Shown here: positions 2,698 to 59,985 of the stretch, in pieces | Numbering within the stretch: the stretch's first letter is position 1 | Layout of the letters: the number at the start of each line of letters is the position of its first letter | Source of the DNA: Dehalococcoidia bacterium | GTDB lineage: Bacteria > Chloroflexota > Dehalococcoidia > Bin125 | DNA: 64,000 bases | Reading direction: 5' to 3' | Assembly (NCBI GenBank): GCA_965116225.1 | Contig: OZ220495.1 | Span: 149,405 to 213,404, forward strand | Position numbers and translations under genes: made by a program | The notes under the pieces: generated by a model | Databases searched by the model: none | Told to the model about the DNA's origin: nothing | What the model saw: the letters and a program-made list of their open reading frames with translations, nothing else

Positions 2698-5178
2698 CTA
2701 GTTGCTGATGTAGAGGATGTCCGAGCGGCCGACCGTGAAATCGCTCGAACCCGGCACCATCGTCCCATCCACAACGGAATAGCGAACCCAGGCCGAGCCG
2801 TTCCACAGGTGGACGGCGCTGGCGCCGCGACCCGAGACCAGACCGAAGACCTCCGACGCCGTTGATTCGACATCGCAGGTCCAGGTGGCGAAGCCGCTCA
2901 AGGCGCTGAGACAGTCCAGACTCGCTTCCGCCGCCGGCGCCGCGGGCGCGCCGGCCGTGCTGATCAGCACCTCGACGTCGCGCGCCGGCGTCGAATCGTC
3001 CGAGACCGTGGCTCGCACCACCGCCCGACCGGCCCCGACCACCGTCAGCGTCGTCGTCGCCTTGCCGGCTACCGTCAGCGCCGACGTATCGTCCAGCACC
3101 GCCACCGCATCGTCGTCGCCGACCAGGTCCGACACCCCGAATGCGACCATGGTGCCGTCCGCCACCGCGTTGCCGCCGGCGTCTGTGACCATCACGCTCG
3201 CCGTCACGCCCTGACCAATCTCGGTCGCCGGCACCGGATCCAGCGTCAGATCGACCTCGTCCGCCGCGCCCACGACCATGAGCGTCGTCGACGCCTTCAG
3301 CGTCCCCGACGTCACCTCAAGTGTGTACGTCCCAGCCGCCAGCGCCGATGTGATCGCCGCGTCGATGTCCAGCATCAGACTGCTCATCATCGAACCCGAC
3401 TGCGTCGTCTCGTACTTGCTCTGCGCCACCAGCGCGCCGCCCGACGTCTTCAGCATCGCCGTCACGGTCGGTACCGTAACCGCCGAACCGGAGGCGTCCG
3501 TCGCGTCAAGCATGAACGAAATCTGGTCGCGCGCGTCCGTGCCGCTATCCGCCTTGGTCGCCGCGTTATAGTCGGCCGCCTGGTCGTTGCCGACGTTGTA
3601 GCCCAACACGTTGCTGGGCGCCGCGCCGATGCTCAGCGAGGTGGCCGGACCCGAGAACCGCACCTGGACCGGGTCGGGTCGATGCACCTGACCGCCCGAG
3701 ATCACGGTCGCCGTGACCGTCGCCGTACCCGGCGACGCCGGCGCCTTCAGCTCAATCCGCATCTTGGCCGGCAGTTGGTCGCCCGACGCCCGCAGACTGC
3801 TCAGGTCGAGCTCGCAGGCCGCCGAGTTCTGCGTCTTGCAGTTCGCCGCCTGAGCCGTCTCGGACCCCATCGCGCCGATGCTCTGCGTCGACAGCGTCCC
3901 GCCCGTGGTCGTGACCACAATCGACGAGACCGCGCTCGCCTCCGACGGCTGGTTGCTCCCGCTCAACACCGACAGCGACAGCTCGGTCGTCCCCGTGCCC
4001 GCCATAATCGTGGTCGGCTCGGCCGTGGTCGCGTCGTCGACGTAGCCGTCCTTGGGCGTCGTATCCGTATCGCCGGCCATCGCCTTGCGCGGCGAACTGG
4101 GGCCGAAACTCACCGTCCCCACCTGGTTCGCCGTCGGACTCACCGTCAGCACCTTCGTGACCGTAATCGGCGTCGTGTCCAGCGCGCCCCGCTGTCCCTT
4201 GACCGTCACCGGGTAATCGCCCGCCGGCGTACCCGACGGAACGACGATCTCAATCGAGATGACATTGGTACCGGTCGTGTCCGATACCGCTCCGGGCAGC
4301 ACATTATCGGCGGTGCACCCTTTGCCCACGTAGGCGTATCCATTACTGCCGCTGCTACTGTCCGAACTGGTGCTGCCGTAGTTAACGCGGAAGCAGGTTT
4401 CCGCAAGCGCCTGATAAATCCAGTAGGCAGTTGCAGCCCTGTACGGATATTCAGAGTTCCTGAAGTATGTCTGCGAATATCCGTCGATCAGCGCGCCCAA
4501 CGGAACCCGAAGCACCCGAATGTCGGGGTCGCTATCCTTGTCGTGGTCGGCCGTGGTGATGGACCGGCTGCGATCCCGATCCAGGTAGTCATCGGGAACG
4601 GACTCGGTGCGCACCATGTCGAAGTTCAGACCGGGAACCTCGGCGCTGTTCACCAGGGCCCCGTTCTTGCCCGTCACCTTGAGCTGCACGTTCGTCCCCG
4701 CCGGCACCACGCCGTCGGACTCGCCCACGAACACGACCTCGAGCGACGGTGTCGCCTCCGGCGTGGTCGAGGGCGCCTGGTCGGCCGCATACGTCGTCAC
4801 CGTGATCGTGTAGCGGTTCAGCGCGATCCCGTTGTCGGTCACGACGATCTCGTAGACCGCCGAACCGGTGTCGTCTTCGCTATCGGCGTCCCGATCCGAG
4901 GGGGTGAAGGTGACCACCCGGCCCGACACCGAGGGGCTGTCCGACGCCAGCGTCTTGGTCCCGCCGCTCTTCCAGACCGCGCTGACCGTGCCCGTGCCCG
5001 GAATCGTCCGCGTGCACGGTACCGCCGCCGGCGTGCCGCCCTCTCCCGCCTGGGTCACCGTGCAGGCGGGCAGCGTCGTCTGCGCCTCAGCCGGTTGCGA
5101 GACCGCCGCCAGCGCGAGCGCCAACGCGACGAGCGCTGCCCCCCCCCCAATAATTTGGTTGATTTGGTTGATGCGCAT
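2698..5178 (-). CDS. Secreted Big_1 (invasin/intimin-type Ig-like) repeat surface protein, paralogue A; in frame only from secondary ATG at 5178
   Basis: 827 aa from ATG 5178 (MRINQINQIIGGGAALVALALALAAVSQPAEA, signal peptide). C-terminal ~480 aa nearly identical to the paralogues at 6870 and 23306, with Big_1-like motifs (GVTASVMVTDAGGNAVADGTMVAF). The G10 tract at 5149-5158 encodes GGG. Confidence 0.75.
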   Translation of the reverse strand: MRINQINQIIGGGAALVALALALAAVSQPAEAQTTLPACTVTQAGEGGTPAAVPCTRTIPGTGTVSAVWKSGGTKTLASDSPSVSGRVVTFTPSDRDADSEDDTGSAVYEIVVTDNGIALNRYTITVTTYAADQAPSTTPEATPSLEVVFVGESDGVVPAGTNVQLKVTGKNGALVNSAEVPGLNFDMVRTESVPDDYLDRDRSRSITTADHDKDSDPDIRVLRVPLGALIDGYSQTYFRNSEYPYRAATAYWIYQALAETCFRVNYGSTSSDSSSGSNGYAYVGKGCTADNVLPGAVSDTTGTNVISIEIVVPSGTPAGDYPVTVKGQRGALDTTPITVTKVLTVSPTANQVGTVSFGPSSPRKAMAGDTDTTPKDGYVDDATTAEPTTIMAGTGTTELSLSVLSGSNQPSEASAVSSIVVTTTGGTLSTQSIGAMGSETAQAANCKTQNSAACELDLSSLRASGDQLPAKMRIELKAPASPGTATVTATVISGGQVHRPDPVQVRFSGPATSLSIGAAPSNVLGYNVGNDQAADYNAATKADSGTDARDQISFMLDATDASGSAVTVPTVTAMLKTSGGALVAQSKYETTQSGSMMSSLMLDIDAAITSALAAGTYTLEVTSGTLKASTTLMVVGAADEVDLTLDPVPATEIGQGVTASVMVTDAGGNAVADGTMVAFGVSDLVGDDDAVAVLDDTSALTVAGKATTTLTVVGAGRAVVRATVSDDSTPARDVEVLISTAGAPAAPAAEASLDCLSALSGFATWTCDVESTASEVFGLVSGRGASAVHLWNGSAWVRYSVVDGTMVPGSSDFTVGRSDILYISN
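5149..5158 (-). repeat. Homopolymeric G10 tract (C10 on plus) inside the signal-peptide coding region of paralogue A
   Basis: Counted directly. Homologous tracts are G12 (9272-9283) and G13 (25789-25801). Confidence 0.8.
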
Positions 5179-5472
5179 CGGCGCATGTTGGCGCGCATCC
5201 GCGCAAGTCTCTGAACCATCTCCAGCCCCTTTCCCGAGACCAGTCGCCGCCCCGTCCGCTCGGGGCGCTCTCCGCCCAAGTATCGCACAGGCAATACCGC
5301 GCAAGACCCCGTATTTCGGTTCTTTTCAAGAATTTACGCTCTGGTTACGATCATTCTGCCGATTTCCGCGGCCCGCCTCCGTCGTACTCGCGCTCTGCCC
5401 GGGCCACAAGAGAACGTCATGTCCGCGCCGGGCGCGGCATGACCGTAGGGGGGGCGCGCCCCTCACCCTTCA

Positions 5473-6869: not shown

Positions 6870-9354
6870 TTAGTTGCTGATGTAGAGGATGTCCGAGCGG
6901 GAGACGGCGAAGTCGCTGGAGCCGGGCACCAAGGTTCCGCCGACGACCGAGTAGCGGATCCAGGCGGTACCGTTCCACAGGTGGACGGCGGTCGCGCCCC
7001 GACCGGAGACCAGACCGAAGACCTCGGAGGCCGTCGATGTGACGTCGCAGGTCCAGGCGGCGAAGCCGGTCCAGGCGCTCAGACAGTCCAGACCCACGGT
7101 CTCGGCCGCCGCCGCCGCGGGCGCGCCGGCCGTGCTGATCAGCACCTCGACGTCGCGCTCCGGCGTCGAGTCGTCCGAGACCGTCGCTCGCACGACCGCG
7201 CGACCGGCGCCCACGACCGTCAGCGTCGTCGAGGCTTTGCCGGCTACCGTCAACGCCGTCGTATCGTCCAGCACTGCCACCGCGTCGTCGTCGCCGACCA
7301 AGTCCGAGACGCCGAACGTGACCATCGTGCCGTCCGCCACCGCGTTGCCGTCGGCATCGGTGACCATCACGCTCGCCGTCACGCCCTGACCAATCTCGGT
7401 GGCCGGGACCGGATCGAGCGTCAAATCGACCTCGTCCGCCGCGCCCACGACCATGAGCGTCGTTGACGCCTTCAGCGTCCCCGACGTCACCTCCAGCGTG
7501 TACGTCCCCGCCGCCAGCGCCGATGTCATCGCCGCGTCGATGTCCAGCATCAGATTGTTCATCATCGAACCCGACTGGGTCGTCTCGTACTTGCTCTGCG
7601 CGACCAGCGCGCCGCCCGACGTCTTCAGCATCGCGCTCACGGTCGGCACCGTGACCGCGGAGCCGGAGGCGTCCGTCGCGTCGAGCATGAACGAAATCTG
7701 GTCGCGGGCGTCCATGCCCGCGTCCGCCTTGGTCGCCGCGTTGTAGTCGGCCGCCTCGTCGTTGCCGACGTTGTAGCCGAGCACGTGACTCGGCGCCGCG
7801 CCGATGCTCAGCGAGGTGGCCGGGCCGGAGAACCTGATTTGGACCGGGTCGGGTCGATGCACTGTGCCGCCCGAGATCACGGTCGCGGTGACCATCGCCG
7901 TACCCGGCGTCGCCGGCGCCTTGAGCTGAATGCGCATCTTGGCCGGCAGCGGATCGCCCGACGCCTTCAGGCTGGTCAGGTCGAGCTCGCAGGCAGCCTG
8001 ACCGCCGGTCTTACAGGTCGCCTTCTGGTCGACCAGGGCGCCGGCCGGGCCGATCTGCTCGGTCGACAGCGTGCCGCCCGTGGTCGTAATCACAATCGAC
8101 GAGACCGCGCTGGCCTCGGACGGCTGGTTGCTCGCGCTCAATACCGAGAGCGACAGCTCGGTCGTGCCCGTGCCGGCCATAATCGTGGTCGGCTCCGCCG
8201 TGGTCGCGTCGTCGATGTAGCCATCCTTGGGCGTCGTATCCGTATCGCCGGCCATCGCCTTGCGCGGCGAACTGGGGCCGAAGCTCACCGTCCCCACCTC
8301 GTTCGCTGTGGGGCTGACCGTCAGCGTCTTCGAGATGGGCGTCAGCGGCGTCGGGTCCTTCAGGCTGCGCTGACCGTACAGCGTGACGACGTAATCACCG
8401 GCAGGCGTGCCCCTGGGCACGACGAGCTCCAGCTCGTACTGGGAGGTATGGAGCGCGCCCGCCGTTTCGCCCTCGTTGCAATAGGATGGGGGGTTGGTAT
8501 TGATTGCCTTTTGGCAGCGACCCCGGAGCAGGAACTCGGCTAAGATGTACTGTAACTGCCCACTCCCGTATTTCGGATTGATTCTGCCAGTGAAGTGCGG
8601 CTCGGATGAGGTGTAGATGTCCGAACCGAGCGACGATGAGCGCGTGATCCGCACATCCATCTTGTCATCCACATCGTGATCCTTGTCGTCGACGGTTTCG
8701 TCCCCATTCCGATCCAGCGTGTCGTCGCCCCAGTAGGCGGTCCGCTTGCCGAAGAAAGTCAACCCTCCCGAAACGGTGATCCGCGTCGGCCATGCATCGT
8801 TCTTGGAGACGTACCTGACGATGACGTTCGTGCCCGCGGTGACGACGCCGTCGGACTCGCCCAGGAAGACGAGCTCGAGCGAGGGCGTCGTCGTCGTGGT
8901 CGCCGGCGCCTGGTCGGCCGCGTAGGTGGTCACCGTGATCGTGAAACGGGCCAGCACGATCCCGTTCTCGGTCGCGATGATCTCGTAGACCGCCGAACCG
9001 GTGTCGTCGTCGCTATCGGCGTCCCGATCCGAAGGCGTGAACGTCACCACCTTCCCCGACACCGAGGGGCTGTCCGCCGCCAGCGTGCTGTCCTTGCCGC
9101 TCTTCCAGACCGCGCTGATCGTGCCCGTGGCCGGAATCGTCCGCGTGCAGGGCACTGCCGCGGGGTCGTCGCCCTCTCCCGCCTGGGTCACCGTGCAGGC
9201 GGGCAGCGTCGTCTGCGCCTCAGCCGGCTGCGAGACCGCCGCCAGCGCTAGCGCCAACGCGACTAGCGCTGCCCCCCCCCCCCAATAATTTGGTTGACTT
9301 AGTTGATGCGCGTCGGCGCATGTTGACGCGCATCCGCGCCAGGCTCTTGACCAT
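6870..9354 (-). CDS. Big_1 repeat surface protein, paralogue B; out of frame at the G12 tract in this sequence
   Basis: SD-linked start ATG 9354 (gggaagagagg-N5-ATG, MVKSLARMRVNMRRRASTKSTKLLGGGG). The conserved signal core and mature protein (AALVALALALAAVSQPAEAQTTLPACTVTQ...) are in another frame and are only in frame if the tract is G11 or G14. The stop-to-stop ORF is 6870..9404. Confidence 0.65.
9272..9283 (-). repeat. Homopolymeric G12 tract in the signal-peptide region of paralogue B
   Basis: Counted directly (9 C + 3 C on the plus strand). Confidence 0.8.
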
Positions 9355-9445: not shown

Positions 9446-9454
9446 CCCCCCCCC
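9446..9454 (-). repeat. Second homopolymeric tract (G9) in the conserved 5' promoter-like region of paralogue B
   Basis: Lies between an A/T-rich block (TAAATTTTTTTAC) and a putative extended -10 (TGCGATAAT at about 9408-9416, minus strand). Confidence 0.6.
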
Positions 9455-12096: not shown

Positions 12097-14961
12097 ATGA
12101 TCGACCCAGGAAAGGGGCGAACGATGCCTGGAATACCCAGTGGACGCCTAGTAATGCCGGCGGGAATCCGGATCAGGTTGGCATGCGCGGCGACGCTAGT
12201 CGCGCTAGTCGGCGGGATAGTCGTCGCGGCGCAGCCGGCATCGGCTGCGCCGCCCGCGCCGTATTGGACGAGCGCCAAGGCGACCATCGCGACGATCACG
12301 CTCAACTGGGGCATCAGCGACCCCTCCGGCGTGACCAAGTTTCAGTACCAGCAGAAGGAGGGTGGCGGCAGCTTCGGCGCCTGGACCGACGTCCCCAATT
12401 CCGGCAACGGCACCAGGAGCTTCAAGAAGACCGGCCTGACCCCGGGCACGAGTTACACCTTCAAGCTTCGCGCCGTCGCCGGAGCCACCCCCGGCGCAGC
12501 ATCGGGTACTTGGTCGAAAACGACGGAATACGTACCGTCCCCGGCCTTCTTGTCGAACCAGTTCGTCAGCACCAGCGCCTCGATCACGCTCAAGTGGAAG
12601 TCGGACAGCAGCAACGAGATCACCAAATGGGAGCTTCGCTACAAGCTGAACAGCGCCGGCTCGTTCGGGAATTGGGCGAACGTCGGCGGCGCGGCCACCC
12701 GGACGCACACGGTGAGCGGACTGACGGCCGACACAGAGTATGACTTCGAGCTGCGCGCTGTCGTTGGCAGCACGCCAGGCAGCGCGCAGGCATATACGGC
12801 GTCTACCACTGCCGCAGGGGGAACCCCAACCCCGACTCCAACCCCGCGGGTCACGACGGCCCCGCCGGCGCCGGCCTGGTCGGCCTTACAGGCCACCATC
12901 GCGACGATCACGCTCAACTGGAGTATCAGCGACCCCTCCGGCGTGACCAAGTACCAGTACCAGCAAAAGGCGAGCGGCGGCAGCTGGAGCGCCTGGACCG
13001 ACATCCCCGATTCCAACGCCGGTACCACGAGCTTCACCAGAACCGGCTTGACCCCTGGCACGAGCTACCAATTCAAGCTTCGCGCCGTCGCCGGCGCCAC
13101 CCCCGGCGCAGCATCGAATGCCCGGTCGAGTTCGACCGACTACGTACCGTCCCCGGCCTTCTTGCATGACCAGTTCGTCAGAACCCAGACGTCGATCACG
13201 CTCAAATGGAGCGCGGCGAGCAGCAACGAGATCACCAGGTGGGAAGTTCGCTACAAGCTGAGCAGCGCCGGCTCGTTCGGGAAGTGGGCGAACGTCGGCG
13301 GCGCGACCACTCGGACGCACACGGTGACAGACCTGTCACCCAACACAGAGTATGACTTCGAGCTGCGCGCTCTCGTTGGCAGCGCCTCCAGCGCCGTACG
13401 ACAATACACGACGTCTACAACTGCCGCAGGGCGGACTCCAACACCGACCCCAATACCAACCCCGACCCCAACACCGACCCCAGCGCCGCGGGTCACGGTC
13501 ACGGCCCCGCCAGCGCCGCATTTGGGGAACTTCCAGGCCACCATCGCGACGATCACGCTCAACTGGAGCATCAGCGACAGCGCCGGCGTGACCAAGTACC
13601 AGTATCAGCAAAAAGCGGGCGGCGGCAGCTGGAGCGCCTGGACCGACATCCCCGATTCCAACGCCGGTACCTCGAGCTTCACCAGGACCGGCCTGACCCC
13701 TGGTACGTCTTACCGCTTCAAGCTTCGCGCCGTTGCCGGAGCCACCCCCGGCACAGCATCGATGGAACGGTCGATATCGACGGAACACGTGCCCTCCGGG
13801 GCTTGGTTGTATGACGAATTCGTCAGGACCGGCGCCTCGATCACGCTCAAGTGGAAGTCGGACAGCAGCAACGAGATCGCCAAATGGGAGCTTCGCTACA
13901 AGCTCAGCAGCGCCGGCTCCTACGGGAAGTGGACGAACGTCGGCGACGCGACCACTCGGACGCACACGGTGAGCGGCCTGACGGCCGACACACAGTATGA
14001 CTTCGAGCTGCGCGCTCTCGTTGGCAGCACCCCAGGCCGCGTACAGAGATACACGACGTCTACCACTGCCGCCGCACAGCAGAGTCCGACGAACACGCTC
14101 AAGGTCGTGCGCGACTCCGACCCCAGCGTGATCATGGGCTCGGGGCAGGTCGAATCCGTCTCCGTCGCCGAAGGGGACAGCGAAAACACATCGCTTTCGT
14201 TCCGTCTCACGCTCGACCAGACCCCTTCGCACGACGTCAGAGTCCAGGCGACGGTCTGGGCGCCTCGCGACGCGAACGTTCGAGGACGTTCCGGCGCCGG
14301 GCGCGAGCGCGACTTCCATTATCTACAACGCCATATCACGTTCGCGGCCGGCGCCACTGGACAGGCGTTGAGCAAGCTGCTGACCGTCGAGATCATCGGC
14401 GATACCCGCGATGAAGATGATGAGACGTTCGAGGTTCGGGTCAACAACCTGCACAGCGGCGATGCCCGGGTGCGGCTGCACGGCGGCGGCAAGCGGATCG
14501 CCTTCAACGTCGTGATCAGCGATGACGACGAACCGAACGCCGAACAGGTCTCGGCGACGCCGATCATCGTCAGCGTGACCGACCAGGCCGCCGCGGAAGG
14601 GGATGCGGGCGTGAGCTTCATGGAATTCCCCGTGACGCTCAGCGGTTCGCCGTCTCACGATGTCCGGCTGCAGGTCACGGCCTGGGCCAAGGGGAAAGAC
14701 ACTGTGCGAGGAAGCCGCAAGGGCCCGGGTCGCGACTTCGGCTATCTGCGGCGTCACATCACGTTCGAGGCCGGCGCCAGCGGGGCGGCGCTGACCCAGA
14801 CGATCCGGGTTCGCATCTTCGGCGATCAGGTTGCGGAACCCGACGAGACGTTCGAGGTTCGGGTCAACAACCTGCTGACGCAGGACAAGCGAGTGCAGAT
14901 GGGCGTGGACGGCCGGACCAGGGTGACAGCGACCGGCACGATTCGCAACGACGACGAGTAG
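12097..14961 (+). CDS. Secreted protein with three tandem FN3 pairs followed by two Calx-beta-like domains
   Basis: Signal-like N-terminus (ATLVALVGGIVVAAQPASAAPPAP; likely start at 12124 or 12154). Three ~210-aa repeat units (WTS/ATIATITLNW...YQQK...TGLTPGTSY.FKLRAV). C-terminal units with Calx-beta signatures (DETFEVRVNNL, ISDDDEPNAE). Confidence 0.75.
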   Translation: MIDPGKGRTMPGIPSGRLVMPAGIRIRLACAATLVALVGGIVVAAQPASAAPPAPYWTSAKATIATITLNWGISDPSGVTKFQYQQKEGGGSFGAWTDVPNSGNGTRSFKKTGLTPGTSYTFKLRAVAGATPGAASGTWSKTTEYVPSPAFLSNQFVSTSASITLKWKSDSSNEITKWELRYKLNSAGSFGNWANVGGAATRTHTVSGLTADTEYDFELRAVVGSTPGSAQAYTASTTAAGGTPTPTPTPRVTTAPPAPAWSALQATIATITLNWSISDPSGVTKYQYQQKASGGSWSAWTDIPDSNAGTTSFTRTGLTPGTSYQFKLRAVAGATPGAASNARSSSTDYVPSPAFLHDQFVRTQTSITLKWSAASSNEITRWEVRYKLSSAGSFGKWANVGGATTRTHTVTDLSPNTEYDFELRALVGSASSAVRQYTTSTTAAGRTPTPTPIPTPTPTPTPAPRVTVTAPPAPHLGNFQATIATITLNWSISDSAGVTKYQYQQKAGGGSWSAWTDIPDSNAGTSSFTRTGLTPGTSYRFKLRAVAGATPGTASMERSISTEHVPSGAWLYDEFVRTGASITLKWKSDSSNEIAKWELRYKLSSAGSYGKWTNVGDATTRTHTVSGLTADTQYDFELRALVGSTPGRVQRYTTSTTAAAQQSPTNTLKVVRDSDPSVIMGSGQVESVSVAEGDSENTSLSFRLTLDQTPSHDVRVQATVWAPRDANVRGRSGAGRERDFHYLQRHITFAAGATGQALSKLLTVEIIGDTRDEDDETFEVRVNNLHSGDARVRLHGGGKRIAFNVVISDDDEPNAEQVSATPIIVSVTDQAAAEGDAGVSFMEFPVTLSGSPSHDVRLQVTAWAKGKDTVRGSRKGPGRDFGYLRRHITFEAGASGAALTQTIRVRIFGDQVAEPDETFEVRVNNLLTQDKRVQMGVDGRTRVTATGTIRNDDE
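12210..14100. repeat. Three tandem ~630-bp DNA repeats (FN3-pair units), roughly 85-90% identical
   Basis: Identity assessed by eye; near-identical stretches such as gccaccatcgcgacgatcacgctcaactgg recur at 12290, 12895 and 13535. Confidence 0.8.
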
Positions 14962-23305: not shown

Positions 23306-25845
23306 CTAGTTGCTGATGTAGAGGATGTCCGAGCGGCCGACGGCGAAGTCGCTGGAGCCGGGCACCATCGTCCCATCGACCACCGAGTAGCGGACCCAGG
23401 CGGAGCCGTTCCACAGGTGGACGGCGCTGGCGCCCCGACCCGAGACCAGGCCGAACACCTCCGACGCCGTCGATTCGACATCGCAGGTCCAGGTGGCGAA
23501 GCCGCTCAAAGCGCTGAGACAGTCCAGGCTCACCGCCTGGGCCGGCGCCTCGGGCGCGCCCGCCGTGCTGATCAGCACCTCGACGTCGCGCGCCGGCGTC
23601 GAGTCGTCCGAGACCGTGGCGCGCACCACCGCGCGACCGGCCCCGACCACGGTCAGCGTCGTCGAGGCTTTGCCGGCTACCGTCAGCGCCGACGTATCGT
23701 CCAGCACCGCCACCGCATCGTCGTCGCCGACCAGGTCCGACACCCCGAACGCCACCATGGTGCCGTCCGCCACCGCGTTGCCGTCGGCATCGACGACCAT
23801 CACGCTCGCGGCGACGCCCTGACCGATCTCGGTCGCCGGCACCGGCTCCAGCGTCAGATCGACGCTGTCCGCCGCCCCCACGACTATGAGCGTGGTTGAC
23901 GCCTTCAGCGTCCCCGACGTCACCTCCAGCGTGTACGTCCCCGCCGCCAGCGCCGATGTGATCGCCGCGTCGATGTCCAGCATCAGACTGCTCATCATCG
24001 AACCCGACTGCGTCGTCTCGTACTTGCTCTGCGCCACCAGCGCGCCGCCCGACGTCTTCAGCATCGCGCTCACGGTCGGTACCGTAACCGCCGAACCGGA
24101 GGCGTCCGTCGCGTCAAGCATGAACGAAATCTGGTCGCGCGCGTCCGTGCCGCTATCCGCCTTGGTCGCCGCGTTGTAGTCGGCCGCCTCGTCGTTGCCG
24201 ACGTTGTAGCCCAACACATTGCTGGGCGCCGCGCCGATGCTCAGCGAGGTGGCCGGACCCGAGAACCTGATCTGGACCGGGTCGGGTCGATGCACCGTGC
24301 CGCCCGAGATCACGGTTGCGGTCACCGTCGCCGTACCCGGCGACGCCGGCGCCTTGAGCTGAATCCGCATCTTGGCCGGCAATGGATCGCCCGAGGCCCG
24401 CAGACTGGTCAGGTCGAGCTCGCAGGCCGCCTGGCCGTTGCTCTTGCACTTTGCCTTCTGGTCGACCAGGGCGCCGGCCGGGCCGATCTGCTCGGTCGAC
24501 AGCGTCCCGCCCGTGGTCGTGATCACAATCGACGAGACCGCGCTCGCCTCCGACGGCTGGTTGCTCCCGCTCAACACCGACAGCGACAATTCCGTCGTGC
24601 CCGTGCCCGCCATAATCGTGGACGGCTCCGTTGTCGACGCGTCATCGATGTAGCCGTCCTTGGGCGTCGTATCCGTATCGCCCGCCACCGCCTTGCGCGG
24701 CGAACTGGGGCCGAAACTCACCGCCCCCACCTGGTTCGCCGTCGGACTCACCGTCAGCACCTTCGTGACCGTAATCGGCGTCGCGTCAACCGCGCCCCGC
24801 TGTCCCTTGACCGTCACCGGGTAATCGCCCGCCGGCGTCCCCGACGGAACGACGATCTCAATCGAGATGACGTTGGTGCCGATGGTCTTGTTGGCGCCCC
24901 CTACCTGTCCGGGGAGCGGATTGTCGCTGTCGGCGCCCGAGCACCCCGCGCCCAGGTAACTGCCGTCGCTCGAACTGCTCGTACTGATGTACTCGACTAC
25001 GCCGCCAACAGTCCTTGAGCCGCCGTAGTTATAGCGGAAGCAGGTTGCCTCAAGCGCCTGATAAATCCAGTAGCTGGCGCCCGACCTGTATGGGAATTCC
25101 TGATTGGAGACTTCGATCTTTGACCCATCCCTCGACTCGATGTACGGACCTAACGCAACCCGAGCCACGCGCACATCGGGGTCGCTATCCGCGTCATGGT
25201 CGGCGGTGGTCCAGGAGCGGCTGAGGTCTCGATCCAGATAGTCATCGGGAACGTACTCGGTGCGCAGGAAGTCGAAGTGCAGACCGGAAGCCGCGATGCT
25301 GTTCACCTGGGCGCCGTTCTTGCGGGTCACCTTGAGCTGCACGTTCGTGCCCGCCGGCACCACGCCGTCGGACTCGCCTACGAACACGATCTCCAGCGAG
25401 GGGGTCGTCTCCGGTGTGGTCGAGGGCGCCTGGTCGGCCGCGTAGGTGGTCACCGTGATCGTGTAGCGGTTCAGCGCGATCCCGTTGTCGGTCACGACGA
25501 TCTCGTAGACCGCCGAACCGGTGTCGTCGTCGCCGGTCACCCGGTCCGACGGCGTGAAGGTCACCACCCGACCCGACACCGAGGGGCTGTCCGACGCCAG
25601 CGTCTTGGTCCCGCCGCTCTTCCAGACCGCGCTGACCGTGCCCGTGCCCGGAATCGTCCGCGTGCAGGGCACTGCTACCGGCGTGCCGCCATCCCCAGCC
25701 TGGGTCACCGTGCAGGCCGGCAGCGTCGTCTGCGCCTCAGCCGGCTGCGAGACCGCCGCCAGCGCAAGCGCCAACGCGACGAGCGCTGCCCCCCCCCCCC
25801 CAATAATTTGACGCGCATGCGCGCAACGATGTGAGTCATCTTCAT
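23306..25845 (-). CDS. Big_1 repeat surface protein, paralogue C; out of frame at the G13 tract
   Basis: SD-linked start (aaagggag ATG AAG ATG at 25845/25839; MKMTHIVARMRVKLLGGGG) is in frame with the mature protein only if the tract is G11 or G14. The stop-to-stop ORF is 23306..26116. Confidence 0.65.
25789..25801 (-). repeat. Homopolymeric G13 tract in the signal-peptide region of paralogue C
   Basis: Counted directly (2+10+1 C on the plus strand). Confidence 0.8.
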
Positions 25846-25931: not shown

Positions 25932-25943
25932 CCCCCCCCCCCC
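25932..25943 (-). repeat. Second homopolymeric tract (G12) in the conserved 5' region of paralogue C
   Basis: Same position as the G9 tract of paralogue B, next to AAATTTTTTGAC and upstream of TGCGATACT. Confidence 0.6.
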
Positions 25944-26102
25944 GTCAAAAAATTTACCCGTGATTTACAATCAACGAACCCGTAACCCGTCGATTGACGT
26001 GATCCATCTCCGTCATGCCCGGCTGGCCCGGGGCTCTCGCTTGCAAGGCGGGGAACAAGACGCCCGCGCCCGGCGCGGGCATGCATGACAGGAGGCGGCG
26101 TT

Positions 26103-29915: not shown

Positions 29916-29927
29916 CCCCCCCCCCCC
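29916..29927 (+). repeat. C12 homopolymer immediately upstream of TATATT, 37 nt before the DinB-like start
   Basis: tcgagCCCCCCCCCCCCatatattcaacc...ATG(29965). Confidence 0.7.
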
Positions 29928-29964
29928 CATATATTCAACCGACATCCCCGACCTGGACTCCGCG

Positions 29965-30573
29965 ATGACCGACGATAATGACGCGCCGATTTCAACACCG
30001 CAGACAACCCGCGACATGCGCGCGCAGGGAATGCCTGAGCGACCGCTGCTGGCGACCGATCCGCCGCTGCCCGCCGACGACTTCGCGCCCGCGCTCTGGG
30101 TTCCGCTGACGCGCGCGTTGCGCGCGCGGCGGCGGCTGATCCGCATGGCCGAGTCGCTGCCGGCCGCGCAGTGGTTGCGCCAGTCGGCGGCGCCGAATTG
30201 GTCGCGGCGCGACCTGCTCGCCCACCTGGCCGCCTCGGATCGGCGCTACCACGACGCGCTGATCGCCGCCCTCAACCAGGCGCCGCTCGAGAATTGGCGA
30301 CCCGACCCGGCCCAGCCAGGGCCCGATCTGGATCGCGCCAACGCGCTGGGCGCCGGGCGCTATGCAGGTCAGTCGGTCGAGCGGTTGGCGGCGCATCTGC
30401 GGGCCGGAGCCGACAAATCGGTCACGCTCCTGGCGGCCTTGAGCGAGGAACAGGTGCTCATGCGAATGGGCTTCGCCGGCAACGCCCTCTCGCTGCTGGA
30501 AGCATGGGCGTCGCACGATAACGATCACGCCGACGACATCATCAACGGACCCAGAATGATGCGCACCCTCTGA
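29965..30573 (+). CDS. DinB/YfiT-like (mycothiol maleylpyruvate isomerase N-terminal domain-like) protein
   Basis: WSRRDLLAHLAASDRRYHDALIAAL, then H-rich helical segments. Confidence 0.5.
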   Translation: MTDDNDAPISTPQTTRDMRAQGMPERPLLATDPPLPADDFAPALWVPLTRALRARRRLIRMAESLPAAQWLRQSAAPNWSRRDLLAHLAASDRRYHDALIAALNQAPLENWRPDPAQPGPDLDRANALGAGRYAGQSVERLAAHLRAGADKSVTLLAALSEEQVLMRMGFAGNALSLLEAWASHDNDHADDIINGPRMMRTL

Positions 30574-30607
30574 CGCCGCTCGCGACTCTCGTCACCGCAT
30601 CGTCTCT

Positions 30608-30795
30608 CTCAGCCTTACTTCCATCGAACCCTGACCGAACTCCTCAGCGACGCCGTCAACCGCGGGTGGGTGGTTCGACGGCACCCGCGAACCGTCGAAC
30701 ACAGACGGCGGTGAGGGCGATGCCGACAATCGCCATCGGCCGGGCCCACTTCCTCGACACACCACCAGTCCTCGGCACCTACCTCCGCCATCGCG
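30608..30795 (+). pseudogene. Frameshifted remnant of the C-terminus of a SAM-methyltransferase paralogue (homologous to the 26103-26290 gene end)
   Basis: PYFHRTLTEL...GGEGDAD... matches PYFHRTLTELFSAAFDRGWVLDGIREPSISDGGEGDADEP. No upstream gene body is present. Confidence 0.55.
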
Positions 30796-30802
30796 GCTGA
30801 CC

Positions 30803-32428
30803 TCAGTCCAGTTCCGGTTTTTGTCCTACCCATCCAATTACGGTCTTCTTTTCGTTTCTATCGTAGCGGAAATAAATTCGGACAACTCGATTCGCACTTC
30901 CGCCTCCCAGCCTCGCATGTAGATCATATACATCTATATCCTTGCTCGCAGGGTTGCGAAAAGTACGCTTCTGACGTCTCGTATCACTTTTACGCACACC
31001 GGAGCTTTCAGGAGCAACATTTACACCTTGCTCAGAGAACCAATCAATGGTACGCTTCCCAATATTACCATTCAACTCGATCATCGTTGCTGCATATTTG
31101 TCCAATACCATAAACGTACGAAGGATTTTCTTCGGTGGCCCCGCAGATGGATCGAGCCCTTTTACACCATCATCCACATCCATTCCAAATGCGAGCCTCT
31201 TGTACTCTCGGTTAGCTATATCTATAGCTTCGCTTACGCTTTTAGGAGAATGATCTGGTGCTTTCTTTTGATCGCGTTCCGATCGCACTTGATCGAGTTC
31301 CTCAAGCAAACTATCACATCTGTCTTGCAAGTCATTTTGAGAGTTAGATTTTTCACTCAGTTCCTGTTGGATGCGACGCAATTCTTCTCCGTGTGATTCC
31401 TTAAGCTGAATTATTTGCGCTTCCAGTTTTTTGTTTTCGTCTTCGAGGTAGTTGATCCATTCTTCACCCTGAAGGTTCTCAAGTCGCTCACTTTTGTATG
31501 CTTCGGTAACAGACTGGATGATCTGCGGGTCAGGTAACGTCGCTGCTTCGGCAAATATCGCCGTCTTGATCTCGCGCTGTGTATTGTCGAGGGCATCTTC
31601 TGCTTCCTTCCCCCAGAGTTTCACATGATGAGGCCAATACCGATGGAATTGCGGCTCGTCTGTACCTGGGCGTATCGGCCAGTATATGCGGATTGCTCCA
31701 GAGAAGCAGCTCCACTCGCGACCGACTAAATCACTTAGCTCCCATGCCCCCGCTACGTCGAGGTGAGCGACATGTGCTACTCCGAAGAGATCGTCTTGGA
31801 AGGAACGGAGGACTCGGTCAGGAGGGAACGGTGAGGGATAATTGTTTGAGGAAATAACGACGATAGGAAGAGTACGGCTTTCATCCCAGATGCTCTCTTG
31901 AAGCAGAAGAGCTCCAGTATCCCCGAAGTAAACTGAGTGATTGCCCTGCACAGATGTGTTTCCAGCTTTCCACTGGTGTGCGGTACCTATCTCCCGCACT
32001 ATCCTGGGGCATTTCAGATCAAGCCCAGGTCTTGGAGTAACTGCGTACTGATCGGCAATCACTTCGGCAATCAATTGACAGCGCGCAGAGAGTACGAGCC
32101 TGTTGTTGCCAGAGGCAATTTTAAGATCTGTTCGGATCGTCGATCCTGAGTCTCCATAAGGATGAGTGAGCTCTAGACTGAGCAGTTTATGAGCCTGGTC
32201 GTCGTGAGTGAGACTGTCGACGGACAGAGACAATGTTCCTTCACGTCCATCACGAAGAATGATGGTTTTTAAGCTCAGGGGTTCTGAATCACCAGTAAAG
32301 TCAAACCGGTCTTTTGCTTTCCGATCTACCCATGCAGATGTCATCTTCATGTATTGATCAAATCGATCAAAAGCCTCAGTAGGCTCTGTCGTTTCAGCTT
32401 GTAGTGAGTAGGCGAGGTAGTTCGTCAT
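30803..32428 (-). CDS. Orphan 541-aa protein in an AT-rich island: N-terminal globular domain, central coiled coil, C-terminal RelE/ParE-like strand motif
   Basis: The 30.8-32.45 kb region is clearly lower in GC than its flanks (estimated by eye at roughly 45% against a ~68% background). Coiled-coil segment LEAQIIQLKESHGEELRRIQQELSEK. C-terminal RVVRIYFRYDRNEKKTVIGWVGQK. No recognisable family. Confidence 0.6.
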   Translation of the reverse strand: MTNYLAYSLQAETTEPTEAFDRFDQYMKMTSAWVDRKAKDRFDFTGDSEPLSLKTIILRDGREGTLSLSVDSLTHDDQAHKLLSLELTHPYGDSGSTIRTDLKIASGNNRLVLSARCQLIAEVIADQYAVTPRPGLDLKCPRIVREIGTAHQWKAGNTSVQGNHSVYFGDTGALLLQESIWDESRTLPIVVISSNNYPSPFPPDRVLRSFQDDLFGVAHVAHLDVAGAWELSDLVGREWSCFSGAIRIYWPIRPGTDEPQFHRYWPHHVKLWGKEAEDALDNTQREIKTAIFAEAATLPDPQIIQSVTEAYKSERLENLQGEEWINYLEDENKKLEAQIIQLKESHGEELRRIQQELSEKSNSQNDLQDRCDSLLEELDQVRSERDQKKAPDHSPKSVSEAIDIANREYKRLAFGMDVDDGVKGLDPSAGPPKKILRTFMVLDKYAATMIELNGNIGKRTIDWFSEQGVNVAPESSGVRKSDTRRQKRTFRNPASKDIDVYDLHARLGGGSANRVVRIYFRYDRNEKKTVIGWVGQKPELD

Positions 32429-33099
32429 TGCTGTTGGCTCCTCGACAGGGCTTAGGGCGCTCCGGCGCGCCGCTCATCGGGTGGGTAGCGGCTTGCGAGG
32501 CATACAATAGGAGGTTGAGCACAGAAGATCAAGAGTGATCCCAGCGGGCCGACGCGATGAGATCACGCAGGATATTATCCGCGCGCCACCCCGGCATCTC
32601 CGCGCACGCGGAATCTCGCTCCCGCGCGGTTGACTGTCTCGCCTCCGCTACGCCTCTGCTGTAGTGTCCGCAGACGGCCGAACCCCGCATCAAGCCGACG
32701 ACCCCATGCGCCAGGAACGACATCAACGCCAATATGGCATCATCGACAGCCAAGGCCGACAAGGCCGGATCGACCACCCGTCACCCCCAATCGCCCCAAA
32801 TCGGTAACAGCGTCTCCCGTTGTGTGGCATTCCGACGCCGAAACGCCGCCCTGGCCGCGTTTGGTCGTCTCCGCCATCACGCTAATTTCCTTCCACCTCA
32901 ACGCGCTGCAAGCCCACTCCGGCAACACCGTCACCGAATCCGCTATCGCCCCATCCATCGCCGAAGCCAACTCAGACAAGACCGCCATCGCCCTCGGCGA
33001 AGCGGCCGCCCGCCGGCGGGTTGCAAATCCGTCCGATGGGCACGGGCGGCGGTTGGGGAGGGGATGGCGTCCAGGCGGGCGGAACCGAGGATGCGAGTT

Positions 33100-33999
33100 T
33101 CAGTGCTCACCCTCTGCTGAGCAGTCCGTTGCGACGGTGATGATCGCCTCGGCCACTGCGTCGGGGCGGCGCATGGGGATGAAGTGGTCCGAGTCCTCGA
33201 CCGCCCGCTCAAACGCGTTGGGAAACACATCGGTCACCTGCTGAGCGGTCGGCGAGCCGTGGCCTTGGGCAGCGCCGGCGCGCAGGATCAGGGTTGGTTG
33301 CCGGACGCGAGCCAGATCGGGCCACGGATCGACGGTCGGCGCATGCTCGAAGCACCAGGCCTCCACCGTCGGATCGCATGCCAGTTCCCACTCGCCCAGC
33401 CTGTTTGTCGGGTTGAGCCCGTAGCGGACATAGCGCTCGACCGCCTCGCGCGTCCAGTGCGTGAACGCGCCGCGACCGATCAGGGACTCCGCCATCTCCT
33501 GCGGGTCGCTCCAGATGCGCCGGCGCTTGCGCGCCAACTCGGCAAGGTCGCCGGGCGCTGTCGGCGGCATCGATCCGCGAGGATTGATCAACACGGGATC
33601 GATCAGCGCCAGCGACTCGATTCGGTCGCTGACGGCTGCGGCGATGGCGCAGACGCAGCCGCCCATCGAGTGGCCGGCGGCGACCACATCCGTCAAGTCC
33701 CGCTGTTCGAGCCAGGCGCTCAGATCGGCCGCCATCTCGCGCCAGTCCGCGCCCGCCTTATCGGATGGCGCCTGCGAAGCGCCGTGACCACGCATGTCGA
33801 GTGCGAACACGCGCCAGTCTTCGGGTAGCAAGCGAACCACATCGTCCCATGTCCGGGCGTGAAAGCCGGTGGCGTGAATCAGGACGGCCGAACGGGCGGG
33901 TTCGGCCGCGGCCGGCCACTCCCAGACCCGCAGGTCATAGCCGCGGACGCGCTCAGTCGATGCAGTGGGCAGCGATCGGTGGTTCATGGACGGATGCAC
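33100..33999 (-). CDS. Alpha/beta-fold hydrolase
   Basis: Nucleophile elbow (GHSMGG), then HATGFHARTWDD. Confidence 0.8.
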   Translation of the reverse strand: MHPSMNHRSLPTASTERVRGYDLRVWEWPAAAEPARSAVLIHATGFHARTWDDVVRLLPEDWRVFALDMRGHGASQAPSDKAGADWREMAADLSAWLEQRDLTDVVAAGHSMGGCVCAIAAAVSDRIESLALIDPVLINPRGSMPPTAPGDLAELARKRRRIWSDPQEMAESLIGRGAFTHWTREAVERYVRYGLNPTNRLGEWELACDPTVEAWCFEHAPTVDPWPDLARVRQPTLILRAGAAQGHGSPTAQQVTDVFPNAFERAVEDSDHFIPMRRPDAVAEAIITVATDCSAEGEH

Positions 34000-36014
34000 T
34001 CCCTACCGGACTCGGGATACGGAAATCCTCGTGCTCTCCAGCAGGCGAAGTGCGCATAGAATTCCTCAGTACCGATACCCCAGAATTGGCGGAAAACCTG
34101 TTCGCCAGCACGAGCCCGCGGGCTCGCGACACTCCTATCCTCCACTTCCGGGGCGAGCCGCGACTGCACGGACAGCGCGCGATAGTATTCGGCGACCGAC
34201 TTGCCGTCGCTGTACGCCTCAAGCCACTCCGTCGCCAGTGCGCCGAGAGCATACTCGGGCGAACCCGAGCTGTTCTCGAGCCTTGGATCATCGAGTGCGA
34301 TATCGTAGCCGCGGGCGGCGGTTACAAGGGGTTCTCTGGCATCAGACCAGGCTTCGTCGAATGCGCCGGCCGCGTACTTGAGGGCGACATACTCGGCAGA
34401 ACCCTCCAGCATGAACGGCGGATAGCTGTTCAGGACGTTGTATCGCTCGGGAAACGACCAGGCGCTTTGCAAAACGTGAAAGTACTCGTGAGCGTATGTG
34501 CCGCCATCCAACAGGCACAGCGCGCCAATCCGTATGGCCGCCGAGGCAAGGCCGCAACCGGGATCACGCGAATCGACTCGCCATGCGACTCCGTCGGCGA
34601 GAAACCCGAATGCATCAACGAACCATTGCTCCACATCGGCGACGATTTGTCGAATCTCATCAGCCCGCGCTTCCGCTAAAGTACCCAAAATAATCACGCG
34701 ATCCGTCTCTGTCGAAAACGGCGGCGCCACCATACGGCGATACGACTCGACACCCGAATAGAACTCATCCCGCGATAGCCCAAATGCGTGATCGAGCGCG
34801 GTCACTGTCACACCGCTGGCTGCGAGGTGATCGAAATATCGGATCAGGCTCTGATCGCCGAATGTCTCCGCAAGGTAGCGAATGACGAGGAATTGCAGTG
34901 GGCGTATGTCGAAGCGCGCATCAACGAGACCGAGCTCCGCCAGGGGAACTGTGACGGATCGCGCCTCAGACAAGTACGCGGAAGCTTGATCACGCTCTCG
35001 ATCAGGCCCAAGCGATGCAAAGCCAACGTATGCGGTATATCCATACCAAAGGCTGTAATCAAGCAGCGTGCGCAGGCGCGCTGCTCTGACCGACTCGACG
35101 GCGACCAGCGTACCTGCGATTTTGGCGATATGGTCGACGCAACTACGGTTGACCAACATCAGCGAATAGGTACCTCCCACGCCGGGACATCCACCGCTTG
35201 GTCTAGCGCTCGGGAATCCCGGCGTTCGTCCATGGTCGGTCAGCAGCGTGTGCGCATCATCCCAATCCTGGGCGACGAAGATGGTATATCGATCCTGCAC
35301 CGCGCCAAAGCGTTCAGCGAGGAGCCGTTCCGCACGACGCACCTCATCGGCGACGCGTTCACGAACTGCTTCGGGCAGCTCGGGCGAAAAGTGGATCACG
35401 CCAGGCGGCTCGACGGGGCGGTTCCAGCTCTGGTCGGCAAGAAGATACAGCGCCATGCGGTCGCCGTACTTCACCGTGGGCGCTGAAGGTGTTAACTCTC
35501 GGACCTGAAGATCGCGGACCGGATACGCATCCCAGGACTGGTTGTCCGCGTTCCACAGCATCACCCCGAATACGTGGGCAAGGTCCAGGCCCCGTAACGC
35601 ATCCGCGAGGGGGACATCATCAGCGCCAAGCCAGCGAAGGACGTTCGCCCCAGTTTGGAGATCCACTCGACCGACAGCAGGTATCGACACACCGCCGTCC
35701 ACCATCGCCACCGTCAGCGTTACTATCGCCTGACCCGGGCCGGTCTCCCTCACCAAAGCCTCGGCCGCCTTGCCGTTAACCACGAACACCACGCCGTCGG
35801 ATTGATCCCGATCTACATCGATGTACCAACTGCCGTCCGCAAACACCGTCGTCGAGCCCAACTCGTCGCCCGAACCAGCGCGCGCGGCAATCTCGTCACC
35901 CGCCGTCGCCCCCGTCCCGTAAAACCGGTACGGCGGCTCCTGCTGCGCCGATGCCATCGCCAGCGCCGACGCCGCCAACGCAATGATCGTCAAGGTTGCG
36001 GCGAGTGGTCGCAT
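33984..36014 (-). CDS. Secreted putative zinc metallopeptidase (HExxH)
   Basis: Signal peptide (MRPLAATLTIIALAASALAMASAQQ). Single HEYFH motif (AHEYFHVLQ). Confidence 0.5.
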   Translation of the reverse strand: MRPLAATLTIIALAASALAMASAQQEPPYRFYGTGATAGDEIAARAGSGDELGSTTVFADGSWYIDVDRDQSDGVVFVVNGKAAEALVRETGPGQAIVTLTVAMVDGGVSIPAVGRVDLQTGANVLRWLGADDVPLADALRGLDLAHVFGVMLWNADNQSWDAYPVRDLQVRELTPSAPTVKYGDRMALYLLADQSWNRPVEPPGVIHFSPELPEAVRERVADEVRRAERLLAERFGAVQDRYTIFVAQDWDDAHTLLTDHGRTPGFPSARPSGGCPGVGGTYSLMLVNRSCVDHIAKIAGTLVAVESVRAARLRTLLDYSLWYGYTAYVGFASLGPDRERDQASAYLSEARSVTVPLAELGLVDARFDIRPLQFLVIRYLAETFGDQSLIRYFDHLAASGVTVTALDHAFGLSRDEFYSGVESYRRMVAPPFSTETDRVIILGTLAEARADEIRQIVADVEQWFVDAFGFLADGVAWRVDSRDPGCGLASAAIRIGALCLLDGGTYAHEYFHVLQSAWSFPERYNVLNSYPPFMLEGSAEYVALKYAAGAFDEAWSDAREPLVTAARGYDIALDDPRLENSSGSPEYALGALATEWLEAYSDGKSVAEYYRALSVQSRLAPEVEDRSVASPRARAGEQVFRQFWGIGTEEFYAHFACWRARGFPYPESGRECIRP

Positions 36015-58188: not shown

Positions 58189-58195
58189 TTCGGAG

Positions 58196-58408
58196 ATGGC
58201 GGGCGACTCGGGCAAGGCAGGCAACGAGCCGAACTGGGACAATCAGACGATCTGGACGGGCGACAACCTCGAGATCATGCGGGGGATGAACTCGGCGTCG
58301 GTGGATTTGATCTACCTCGATCCGCCGTTCAACTCGAACAAGGACTATCTTACTCATTCATTGTCAGCCTATTCCGTAACTGGCAGAGACTTCCTTGTTG
58401 AATCGTAA
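58196..58408 (+). pseudogene. N-terminal stub (about 65 aa) of a beta-class DNA methyltransferase
   Basis: Retains target-region/motif IV (WTGDNLEIMRGMNSASVDLIYLDPPFNSNKDY), then terminates. AT-richer DNA follows. Confidence 0.6.
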
Positions 58409-59666: not shown

Positions 59667-59985
59667 TTGAGTCTGAGTCGTTTCCGCGTCATCACACGAG
59701 CAGTCCGCGCCTGCTTTGCAATAGTCTGGCGCGGTCGTTGATTGCGATGACGCGCGAATCCACTCAGGCCAGGTAACCGCGCACGGCTAAGGTCGGCGTG
59801 GTCGAGCTTGCCAAGGGCTGGATACGTCATCCCCGCATCCTCTCTGGAGAGACAGTGTACCCAAATCAGGACAACTATCTACCCTCCTGGTGATCAGGGA
59901 CGGACGCCCGGGCTGGAGGCGCTGATTGCGCGATTGACAGCACAGGACATTCGGCAGGACTAGGATTCAGGGGAAGGAGTCTGCG

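Follow-up and report, generated by a model that had tools for sequence, protein, structure and literature searches.

A Poly-G Tract in the Signal-Peptide Coding Region Suggests Phase Variation of a Family of Secreted Ig-Like Proteins in a Dehalococcoidia Genome

Known phase-variable systems and the locus in the window

In host-adapted pathogens (Neisseria, Campylobacter, Helicobacter, and Treponema are examples), phase variation through length changes in homopolymeric tracts is textbook knowledge. Here we describe a comparable arrangement in a 64,000-nucleotide stretch of contig OZ220495.1 from a Dehalococcoidia bacterium (positions 149,405 to 213,404; hereafter, the window), in which three paralogous genes, termed A, B, and C, carry an uninterrupted run of G in the part that codes for the signal peptide. 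In paralogue A this run has ten G (G10). We consider it likely that A and its relatives form a phase-variable family of about 16 secreted proteins with multiple immunoglobulin (Ig)-like domains, whose expression is gated by the hypermutable poly-G of the signal peptide.

The nearest parallel is pilC of Neisseria, the G tract of which was reportedly placed inside the signal-peptide coding part of the gene by Jonsson et al. in 1991. Tracts of 9 to 20 G or C inside an open reading frame (ORF) are the standard device for translational phase variation in this genus, and pilC itself carries G9-20 (PMC5953494). As in pilC (and also lgt, pgl, and nalP), the tract described here falls within or close to this range of about 9 to 20 G and lies in the 5' coding region, where the gain or loss of one G would decide whether a complete secreted protein or only a short peptide is made; the pilC products are host exposed. 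The two systems differ in that they share no sequence or fold relationship, that the present organism is an uncultured, high-GC (guanine plus cytosine), Dehalococcoidia-like nonpathogen, and that its tract is common to a family of about 16 members and not confined to one or two genes. Further, switching has been demonstrated in Neisseria, whereas here it is proposed from assembled sequence. The Opa proteins of Neisseria provide a parallel at the level of the family: as would hold for A and its relatives under the present proposal, they are a multigene surface family with a repeat in the leader-peptide coding region of each copy, independent switching that lets cells display varying subsets, conserved ends, and hypervariable internal regions. 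The Opa repeat, however, is the pentanucleotide CTCTT, the products are small beta-barrel outer-membrane proteins, and a promoter tract is lacking, whereas here a homopolymer is associated with Ig-like chains of 800 residues.

In lic1 of Haemophilus influenzae, multiple starts in different frames upstream of the repeat are a fixed feature of the locus. The number of CAAT repeats in lic1 and lic2A pairs the ORF with different starts, giving strong, weak, or no expression, and a comparable pairing would apply to ATG 5219 and ATG 5178 of paralogue A; unlike in lic1, the second ATG of A is a nonconserved single-base variant. The tpr paralogues of Treponema pallidum, a family of putative surface proteins, and tp0126 have variable poly-G tracts upstream of the start, the length of which modulates transcription (PMC7864442). 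These resemble the upstream tracts of B (G9) and C (G12) and the G13 to G19 tracts of a related contig, OZ242034.1; paralogue A differs in having a coding tract only, with no upstream tract, and a second tract in the signal peptide is not reported for the tpr genes in PMC7864442. In Listeria monocytogenes, the 5' poly-A of inlA reverts at about 1000 times the point-mutation rate; homopolymers at the 5' ends of genes act as reversible inactivators (PMC2831843). Here too the homopolymer is near the 5' end of a gene, one for a putative surface protein, and a frameshift leaves a very short product, the difference being a poly-A of 7 in a single gene there as against a poly-G of 10 to 13 here. In the literature on Chloroflexi, Dehalococcoidia, and sponge symbionts, we found no report of homopolymer phase variation; the mechanism itself is known, and the lineage would be new for poly-G phase variation of a surface-protein family.

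The signal-peptide tract and the reading frame of paralogue A

On the minus strand, paralogue A reads AAAGGGG (5232-5226), CTGGAG, ATG (5219-5217) GTT CAG AGA CTT GCG CGG ATG CGC GCC AAC..., continuing as ...ATG CGC CGA TGC GCA TCA ACC AAA TCA ACC AAA TTA TTG, G10 (5148-5139), and then CAGCGCTCGTC... (Table 1). The uninterrupted tract is found in the 5' part of the ORF, at 71 nucleotides after the main ATG, and exceeds the mutability threshold used here to recognize a contingency locus (a repeat of about 8-9 or more G or C within the 5' ORF). In the frame that we regard as the on frame, it separates the signal peptide's basic n-region from its hydrophobic core. This signal peptide is predicted to be of the Sec type, with cleavage in A at AEA/Q, before QTTLPAC. 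A twin-arginine translocation (Tat) signal was considered on account of an RR in the n-region and set aside, since this pair stands about 12 residues away from the hydrophobic core and the copies of the related metagenome-assembled genome (MAG) described below do not have it.

With the assembled G10, the main ATG yields an Arg-rich product of 54 codons (MVQRLARMRANMRRCASTKSTKLLGGGQRSS...), and the long ORF of 2.4 kb (stop at 2698) shares its frame with a secondary ATG at 5178, not with the main ATG at 5219. When the tract length was varied in silico from n = 8 to 15, the main ATG joined the ORF at full length for n = 8, 11, and 14 and gave products of 43 to 55 codons at the remaining lengths; ATG 5178 joined at n = 10 or 13, and n = 9 or 12 left only a TTG. 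A TTG at 5124-5122, inside the hydrophobic core, is in frame and usable at every tract length, and the codon equivalent to it is where annotators began the frame-shifted paralogue C.

These results bear out the observation, and part of the interpretation, of the original prediction, a reading of the window's sequence from which this analysis started. The sequence it quoted, both ATGs, the peptides, and the frame arithmetic are all found in the DNA, and a change of one G indeed restores or destroys the frame of ATG 5219. Its G10 tract stands, with a shifted boundary: in place of 5141, the tract extends 2 nucleotides further, to 5139, this last G being also the first base of the first Ala codon after the tract. 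Likewise, G11 and G14 restore the main frame as it had stated, though not exclusively, since G8 does so too. ATG 5219, its canonical start, is shown to be the genuine start of the family by two other members in the same genome, P0003 (MVKSLARMRVNMRRRASTKSTKLLGGGAALV...) and P0006 (MTHRLARMRVNMRRCASTKLLGGGAALV...), which read from the equivalent ATG straight through the tract into the same signal peptide, with the leader pattern MV/MT...RMRVNMRR.ASTK..LLGGGAALV; three copies of the related MAG likewise read through their tracts from the equivalent start. The 5219 frame is therefore genuine. It had also named GGAG as the ribosome-binding site. A candidate site does precede the ATG, but as GGAG itself abuts the start codon, the AAAGGGG located 6 nucleotides upstream is the likelier Shine-Dalgarno sequence, a spacing conserved in B, C, and the related MAG, where purine-rich blocks (GGAAGGA in the MAG) lie 5-7 nucleotides before the equivalent starts.

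Paralogues and relatives with tracts of differing length

A protein search recovered 16 relatives on a single contig of 2,601,622 bp, which is the genome of the window (P0001 to P0015 and the decayed P0020), together with three further relatives on a contig of 2.46 Mb and one on a contig of 2.49 Mb. The flanks of the tract are near-identical in the window's paralogues, with A and C differing at one position in the 39 nucleotides compared downstream of it, and the tract length varies between these conserved flanks: 10, 12, and 13 in the paralogues and 11, 11, 12, and 12 in a second species. In the public annotation, the N-termini of P0002 (paralogue C), P0005, P0008, P0009, and P0010 are placed at a TTG within the hydrophobic core (MALALAAV... 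or MALAAV...), and those of P0001 (A) and P0004 (B) at unrelated ATGs (MRINQ... and MPPTDE..., respectively), because their tract lengths are not 2 modulo 3. These arbitrary N-termini mask the shared signal peptide and tract. By the called N-termini, two of the nine tract-bearing copies of this genome are in frame and seven out of frame. All members examined that lack a long tract are in frame, namely, P0007, P0011, P0012, P0013, and P0014, in which the tract is interrupted or missing (LARGW, LLGGLGGW, LLGGW, WWVG, and KWW), and L004 of the second species.

A scan of species-representative genomes found relatives in two Dehalococcoidia MAGs only. The copies in one of these, OZ242034.1, have 43 to 51% protein identity to the window's family, and four of its five paralogues possess poly-G at the same point of the signal peptide (...LARMRLKI-x-GGG-VALLALAAAL...). 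More distant relatives (36 to 53% identity) have signal peptides such as MRLSHLTALAVMIALVGAMFVALPSAGAQ or MRLSHLTALAV... that are devoid of a tract; they come from contigs of MKWU01, a metagenome of the sponge Aplysina aerophoba (PMC5649159), from other metagenome contigs, and from the second MAG. A protein-based scan of metagenomes likewise yielded only more distant relatives, none with tracts, and a profile search of 1.84 billion cluster representatives gave 378 related clusters, mostly sharing the C-terminal 300 to 500 residues. As these distant relatives are tractless, the tracts are a derived trait, belonging to a small subclade of a wider protein family. Judging from the nearest relatives, the lineage of the window is probably sponge associated. 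The same locus was not recovered from metagenome contigs with the exact pattern AAATTATTG8+...CAGCGCT (0 matches), and exact-protein look-ups for P0001, P0003, and the neighboring ATPase returned no record.

The composition of the window sets the tract apart from its background. Runs of at least 8 G number 27 as overlapping matches, as against 2.6 expected from shuffles, and the C runs of the plus strand are bimodal in length (5 in 20 cases, 6 in one, and then 9, 10, 12, 12, 13, and 13), all six long runs being G on the minus strand. GGG makes up 17% of the glycine codons in eight genes of the window, and Gly-Gly pairs elsewhere in the paralogues are mostly GGC-GGC; the coding sequence of the window outside the family's tracts has no run of at least 7 G or C. 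The excess of long runs, their bimodal lengths, and the rarity of GGG together indicate that the tract is not a chance feature. One further long run, G13 on the minus strand (C13 on the plus strand) at 29916-29928, is intergenic. On the plus strand it is directly followed by ATATATT and lies 36 nucleotides before the ATG of a DinB-family ORF (29965-30573), and the sequence downstream of it on the minus strand loosely resembles the upstream region of the family. It may be another promoter switch or a relic.

Protein products and selection

Each of A, B, and C has more than 795 uninterrupted codons with no internal stops. Pairwise comparisons of the conserved C-terminal 491 codons give synonymous divergence (dS) of 0.19 to 0.33 and ratios of nonsynonymous to synonymous divergence (dN/dS) of 0.20 to 0.28; the out-of-frame copies are thus intact and under purifying selection. 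The N-terminal leader and the C-terminal domain are nearly identical between copies, whereas a central region (about residues 160-340) is hypervariable, with 47 to 75% nucleotide identity as against 85 to 92% in its flanks. This combination of near-identical ends and a variable middle suggests that gene conversion has acted on the ends and that the middle has diversified.

Pfam returned no family above threshold for the protein of paralogue A and a single subthreshold match to MG2, and a sequence search of the PDB gave marginal matches only (E about 0.01, to a cellulosomal scaffoldin domain). The AlphaFold model (mean predicted local distance difference test [pLDDT] score of 65) shows an N-terminal helix at residues 29-37, corresponding to the signal-peptide core, followed by a chain of beta-sandwich, Ig-like domains. 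Foldseek relates this chain to generic chains of Ig, FN3, or MG domains, among them the S-layer proteins SbsB and SbsC and the adhesin PrgB with its Ig-like domains. Taken with the signal peptide, such a model would fit a putative location at the cell surface. Elsewhere, P0019, P0022, P0025, and P0026 have FN3 repeats fused to the C-terminal module of the family, and adjoining the neighborhood of B is a 954-amino-acid protein containing six fibronectin type III repeats plus one Calx-beta domain (12097-14961, plus strand).

Upstream regions and additional starts

A candidate promoter, with an extended -10-like box, is conserved upstream of A, B, and C, and the 10-mer GTGCGATAMT occurs without mismatch in the window at these three places only. 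A strict sigma-70 promoter and terminator scan upstream of the three genes found nothing, so that the promoter assignments depend on the conserved TGCGATAMT box. B and C each have a second G tract further upstream, which comes after GTAAATTTTTT(T/G)AC. In OZ242034.1, second tracts of G15, G19, G18, and G13 are present in four of the five copies and the tract is degenerate in L003; they are flanked by an AT-rich block (GTAAATT.TTTGTAAATTTTC) and by TAAAyCTATTGAyT. In both species the second tract is about 92 nucleotides upstream of the main ATG. It is situated between the AT-rich block and what may be the core promoter, and probably serves in transcriptional phase variation. The homologous place in paralogue A reads TAAATTCTTGAAAAGAACCGAAATACGGGG, and A has no long upstream tract and no promoter homopolymer of the type known from the tpr genes of T. 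pallidum and from porA and opc of Neisseria meningitidis.

The leader RNA of A folds no better than shuffles (z = -0.74), and a structure-based or riboswitch-like explanation was dropped for this reason; Rfam and tRNA scans of the window were empty. G-quadruplex effects were also discarded, since one run of ten G falls short of what a canonical intramolecular quadruplex needs.

The original prediction had attached weight to ATG 5178 as a leaderless-like second start with neither a Shine-Dalgarno sequence nor a basic n-region, and as the only ATG in frame at G10. The last point is correct for ATGs, with TTG 5124-5122 in frame in addition, and no purine-rich sequence was found upstream of ATG 5178. 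The peptide from this start (MRINQINQIIGGGAALVALALALAAVSQPAEAQTT...) does, however, carry Arg2. Nor does the leaderless description fit, as ATG 5178 is 41 nucleotides downstream of the main ATG and about 100 nucleotides past the only conserved -10-like box, and would sit well within the transcript; the promoter scan found no internal promoter for it. This ATG is due to a single C-to-T difference (TGC for Cys in A versus CGC for Arg in B, in the main frame), its position being ACG in B and lost in C with the deletion of a whole 32-nucleotide segment. It is not conserved, and we regard it as probably incidental, with nothing to suggest its selection as a second start. If it were used, the peptide MR-INQINQII-GGG-core-AEA/Q could probably still be exported, and the G10 state may therefore be one of very low expression and not strictly off. 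Paralogue B, at G12, is in frame with ATG 9404, 8 nucleotides after the conserved TGCGATAMT box, and paralogue C, at G13, with a GTG 6 nucleotides after it. Leaderless starts at these codons are conceivable but unsupported, since the strict promoter scans were negative and the B N-terminus makes a poor signal peptide. The starts in other frames vary from copy to copy and do not form a conserved set in a second frame as in lic1.

Table 1. Positions of features in the window and in the related contig OZ242034.1; unless a locus L001 to L007 of OZ242034.1 is named, coordinates refer to the window
Feature	Coordinates	Strand	Remarks
G10 homopolymeric tract (A)	5139..5148	minus	Proposed slippage site; encodes Gly-Gly-Gly linker in on frame
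Main start ATG (A)	5217..5219	minus	Conserved start of the family; out of frame with long ORF at G10
Shine-Dalgarno-like AAAGGGG (A)	5226..5232	minus	6 nucleotides upstream of main ATG; putative ribosome-binding site
TGA (A)	5055..5057	minus	At G10, ends the Arg-rich product (54 codons) started at main ATG
Secondary ATG (A)	5176..5178	minus	Shares the frame of the long ORF at G10 or G13 (MRINQINQIIGGGAALV...); lacks a Shine-Dalgarno sequence and is not shared by the paralogues
Signal-peptide remainder after tract (A)	5083..5138	minus	Core AALVALALALAAV, then c-region SQPAEA; almost the same in all three paralogues
Mature protein of A (P0001)	2698..5082	minus	Stop codon included; conserved C-terminal region of about 500 residues
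Hypervariable region	about 3700-4650 (A), 7900-8750 (B), 24300-25300 (C)	minus	
TGCGATACT	5279..5287	minus	Extended -10-like box, candidate promoter; conserved upstream of A, B, and C
Paralogue A (P0001)	2698-5219	minus	G10
Paralogue B (P0004)	6870-9354	minus	G12 at 9272..9283; main ATG 9354-9352 out of frame
Paralogue C (P0002)	23306-25845	minus	G13 at 25789..25801; main ATGs 25845-25843 and 25839-25837 out of frame
Upstream G9 tract of B	9446..9454	minus	Preceded by GTAAATTTTTTTAC; about 92 nucleotides before main ATG
Upstream G12 tract of C	25932..25943	minus	Layout as in B
L001 coding tract			G12; out of frame
L002 coding tract			G11; in frame
L003 coding tract			G12 preceded by A; in frame
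L004 coding tract			Interrupted (CTGGCGGGGGC); in frame
L007 coding tract			G11; in frame
Upstream tracts of OZ242034.1	L001 1306-1320; L002 967-985; L004 1231-1248; L007 1303-1315		

Proposed phase variation and the alternatives to it

Taking these findings together, we propose that slipped-strand mispairing during replication would add or remove one G in the tract and thereby switch the gene reversibly. At lengths of 2 modulo 3 (8, 11, or 14), translation from ATG 5219 would produce a long basic n-region, a linker of 3 to 4 Gly, the core, and the AEA/Q cleavage site, resulting in export. At G10, as assembled, ribosomes starting there would terminate at the TGA after 54 codons, leaving the gene off or at most leaky through ATG 5178. 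More generally, length changes that are not multiples of three would abort translation early, after 43 to 55 codons, whereas triplet changes would do no harm, their sole effect being one Gly more or fewer at the junction of n-region and hydrophobic core. With about ten copies that differ in their hypervariable regions switching independently, cells would come to display different subsets of surface proteins, and in B, C, and the related MAG the second, probably transcriptional, tract would be superimposed on this. One possibility, to which we give only tentative credence, is that the two kinds of tract amount to a two-layer contingency system in a probably sponge-associated lineage, with each of about a dozen genes bearing one poly-G switch on the promoter side and another, independent one in the signal peptide, and with alternative starts in other frames giving some copies a graded in place of a binary output. 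This would represent combinatorial surface variation of the kind seen in pathogens, in a mutualist with a genome of 2.6 Mb, driven by host recognition or phage.

Several points weigh against the proposal of phase variation. The tract lengths are those of the assembly consensus; the genome looks like a long-read MAG, in which the consensus of a homopolymer of 10 to 13 nucleotides may err by one. The fraction of tract-bearing copies that is out of frame (7 of 9) is no different from the two-thirds expected for random lengths and is thus uninformative on selection on the state. Further, the putative surface assignment draws on the signal peptide and an Ig-like fold modeled at a pLDDT of 65. The presence, position, and conservation of the tract are robust to these concerns, while the exact count of 10, and with it the currently off state of A, is uncertain.

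The first of these concerns leads to the alternative that the frameshift is an artifact of consensus error, the real tract being G11 in A (and G11 or G14 in B and C) and the gene simply on, at a site that would still be hypermutable. What error remains in long-read consensus falls mainly on long homopolymers; the related genomes are complete-chromosome MAGs whose contig names are of long-read style, and that of the window consists of one 2.6-Mb contig. A and B are each one G away from 11. The restriction of frameshifts to tract-bearing copies is also predicted by such an error model. It would, however, require errors in seven of the nine tract-bearing copies and in both directions (10 and 12), and C, with 13, needs a two-base error or a different true length. 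Moreover, the other long genes of the window are intact with complete coverage of their Pfam domains, pointing to good general indel quality; as ordinary window genes contain no homopolymer of at least 7, they offer no internal calibration of homopolymer accuracy as such. We hence judge an artifact to be rather unlikely, and less likely than real length variation. An alternative that accepts the assembled lengths, and in essence the idea of the original prediction, is a graded switch of three states, in which tract length would set high, low, or other expression and not simply on or off, with translation from the main ATG at 2 modulo 3, from ATG 5178 at 1 modulo 3, and from the B ATG near the -10-like box at 0 modulo 3. 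In its favor, A at G10 obtains from ATG 5178 a workable minimal signal peptide (MR..., with core and cleavage site intact), the in-frame ATG 9404 of B lies 8 nucleotides after TGCGATAAT and could be leaderless, C at G13 has its GTG 6 nucleotides after its box, and no obvious Shine-Dalgarno sequence precedes many of the ORF starts in the window, so that starts of this type need not be dead. The alternative starts are, however, not conserved (at 5178, B has ACG and C a deletion). Where B has ATG 9404, A carries no start codon, and its 0 modulo 3 frame contains only a TTG; the alternative N-terminus of B (MPPTDEAATEYREERPRW..., with 43 residues before the Gly linker and an acidic N-terminal end) is a poor signal peptide. 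We consider a three-state switch improbable.

The purifying selection on out-of-frame ORFs could also be accommodated by recoding, in which slippage of RNA polymerase or ribosomal frameshifting on the G run would give constitutive low expression of the out-of-frame copies. Transcriptional slippage can occur on long homopolymers, A/T runs being the best-documented case; to our knowledge, slippage on G/C runs is not well documented in bacteria, which counts against this explanation. Recoding would further be expected to involve a fixed offset across homologues, but the offsets are mixed (+1 in A, -1 in B, and +1 in C), and P0003, P0006, L002, L003, and L007 need an offset of 0; no stimulatory RNA structure is evident either, in keeping with the folding of the leader of A. 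We therefore consider recoding very improbable. Still harder to credit is the view that A, B, and C are pseudogenes, i.e., redundant copies in decay that were frameshifted at a mutational hotspot. All three window copies are indeed out of frame, and two members at other places in the genome, P0015 and P0020, seem truncated or decayed. Yet the roughly 800 codons of each copy hold no other frameshift or stop despite a dS of 0.19 to 0.41 between copies, the dN/dS is 0.2 to 0.3 in the conserved part, and both species retain the uninterrupted tract at one and the same site.

Should the tracts switch as we propose under phase variation, about 1.5% of a small genome would be given over to a stochastic, combinatorial surface coat. 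This would imply strong and fluctuating selection on the cell surface, arising from host recognition or phage, and would provide symbiosis research with specific loci, the tract-length spectra of which could be read from existing metagenomic reads.

Other features of the window

GC-rich palindromes such as GGGGCGCGCCCC and CCCGCGCCGGGCGCGGG are found at 5440-5465 and 26060-26085 on the minus strand, which places them about 170-230 nucleotides before the main ATGs of A and C; they may represent repeat elements or serve to terminate the genes upstream. Two islands at 30000-36000 and 58000-60000 have a lower GC content (0.56-0.61 as against 0.65 for the window). The low-GC islands contain large ORFs without a Pfam match (30803-32428, 541 amino acids; 33984-36014, 676 amino acids) and differ in glycine codon usage; they are possibly acquired DNA.

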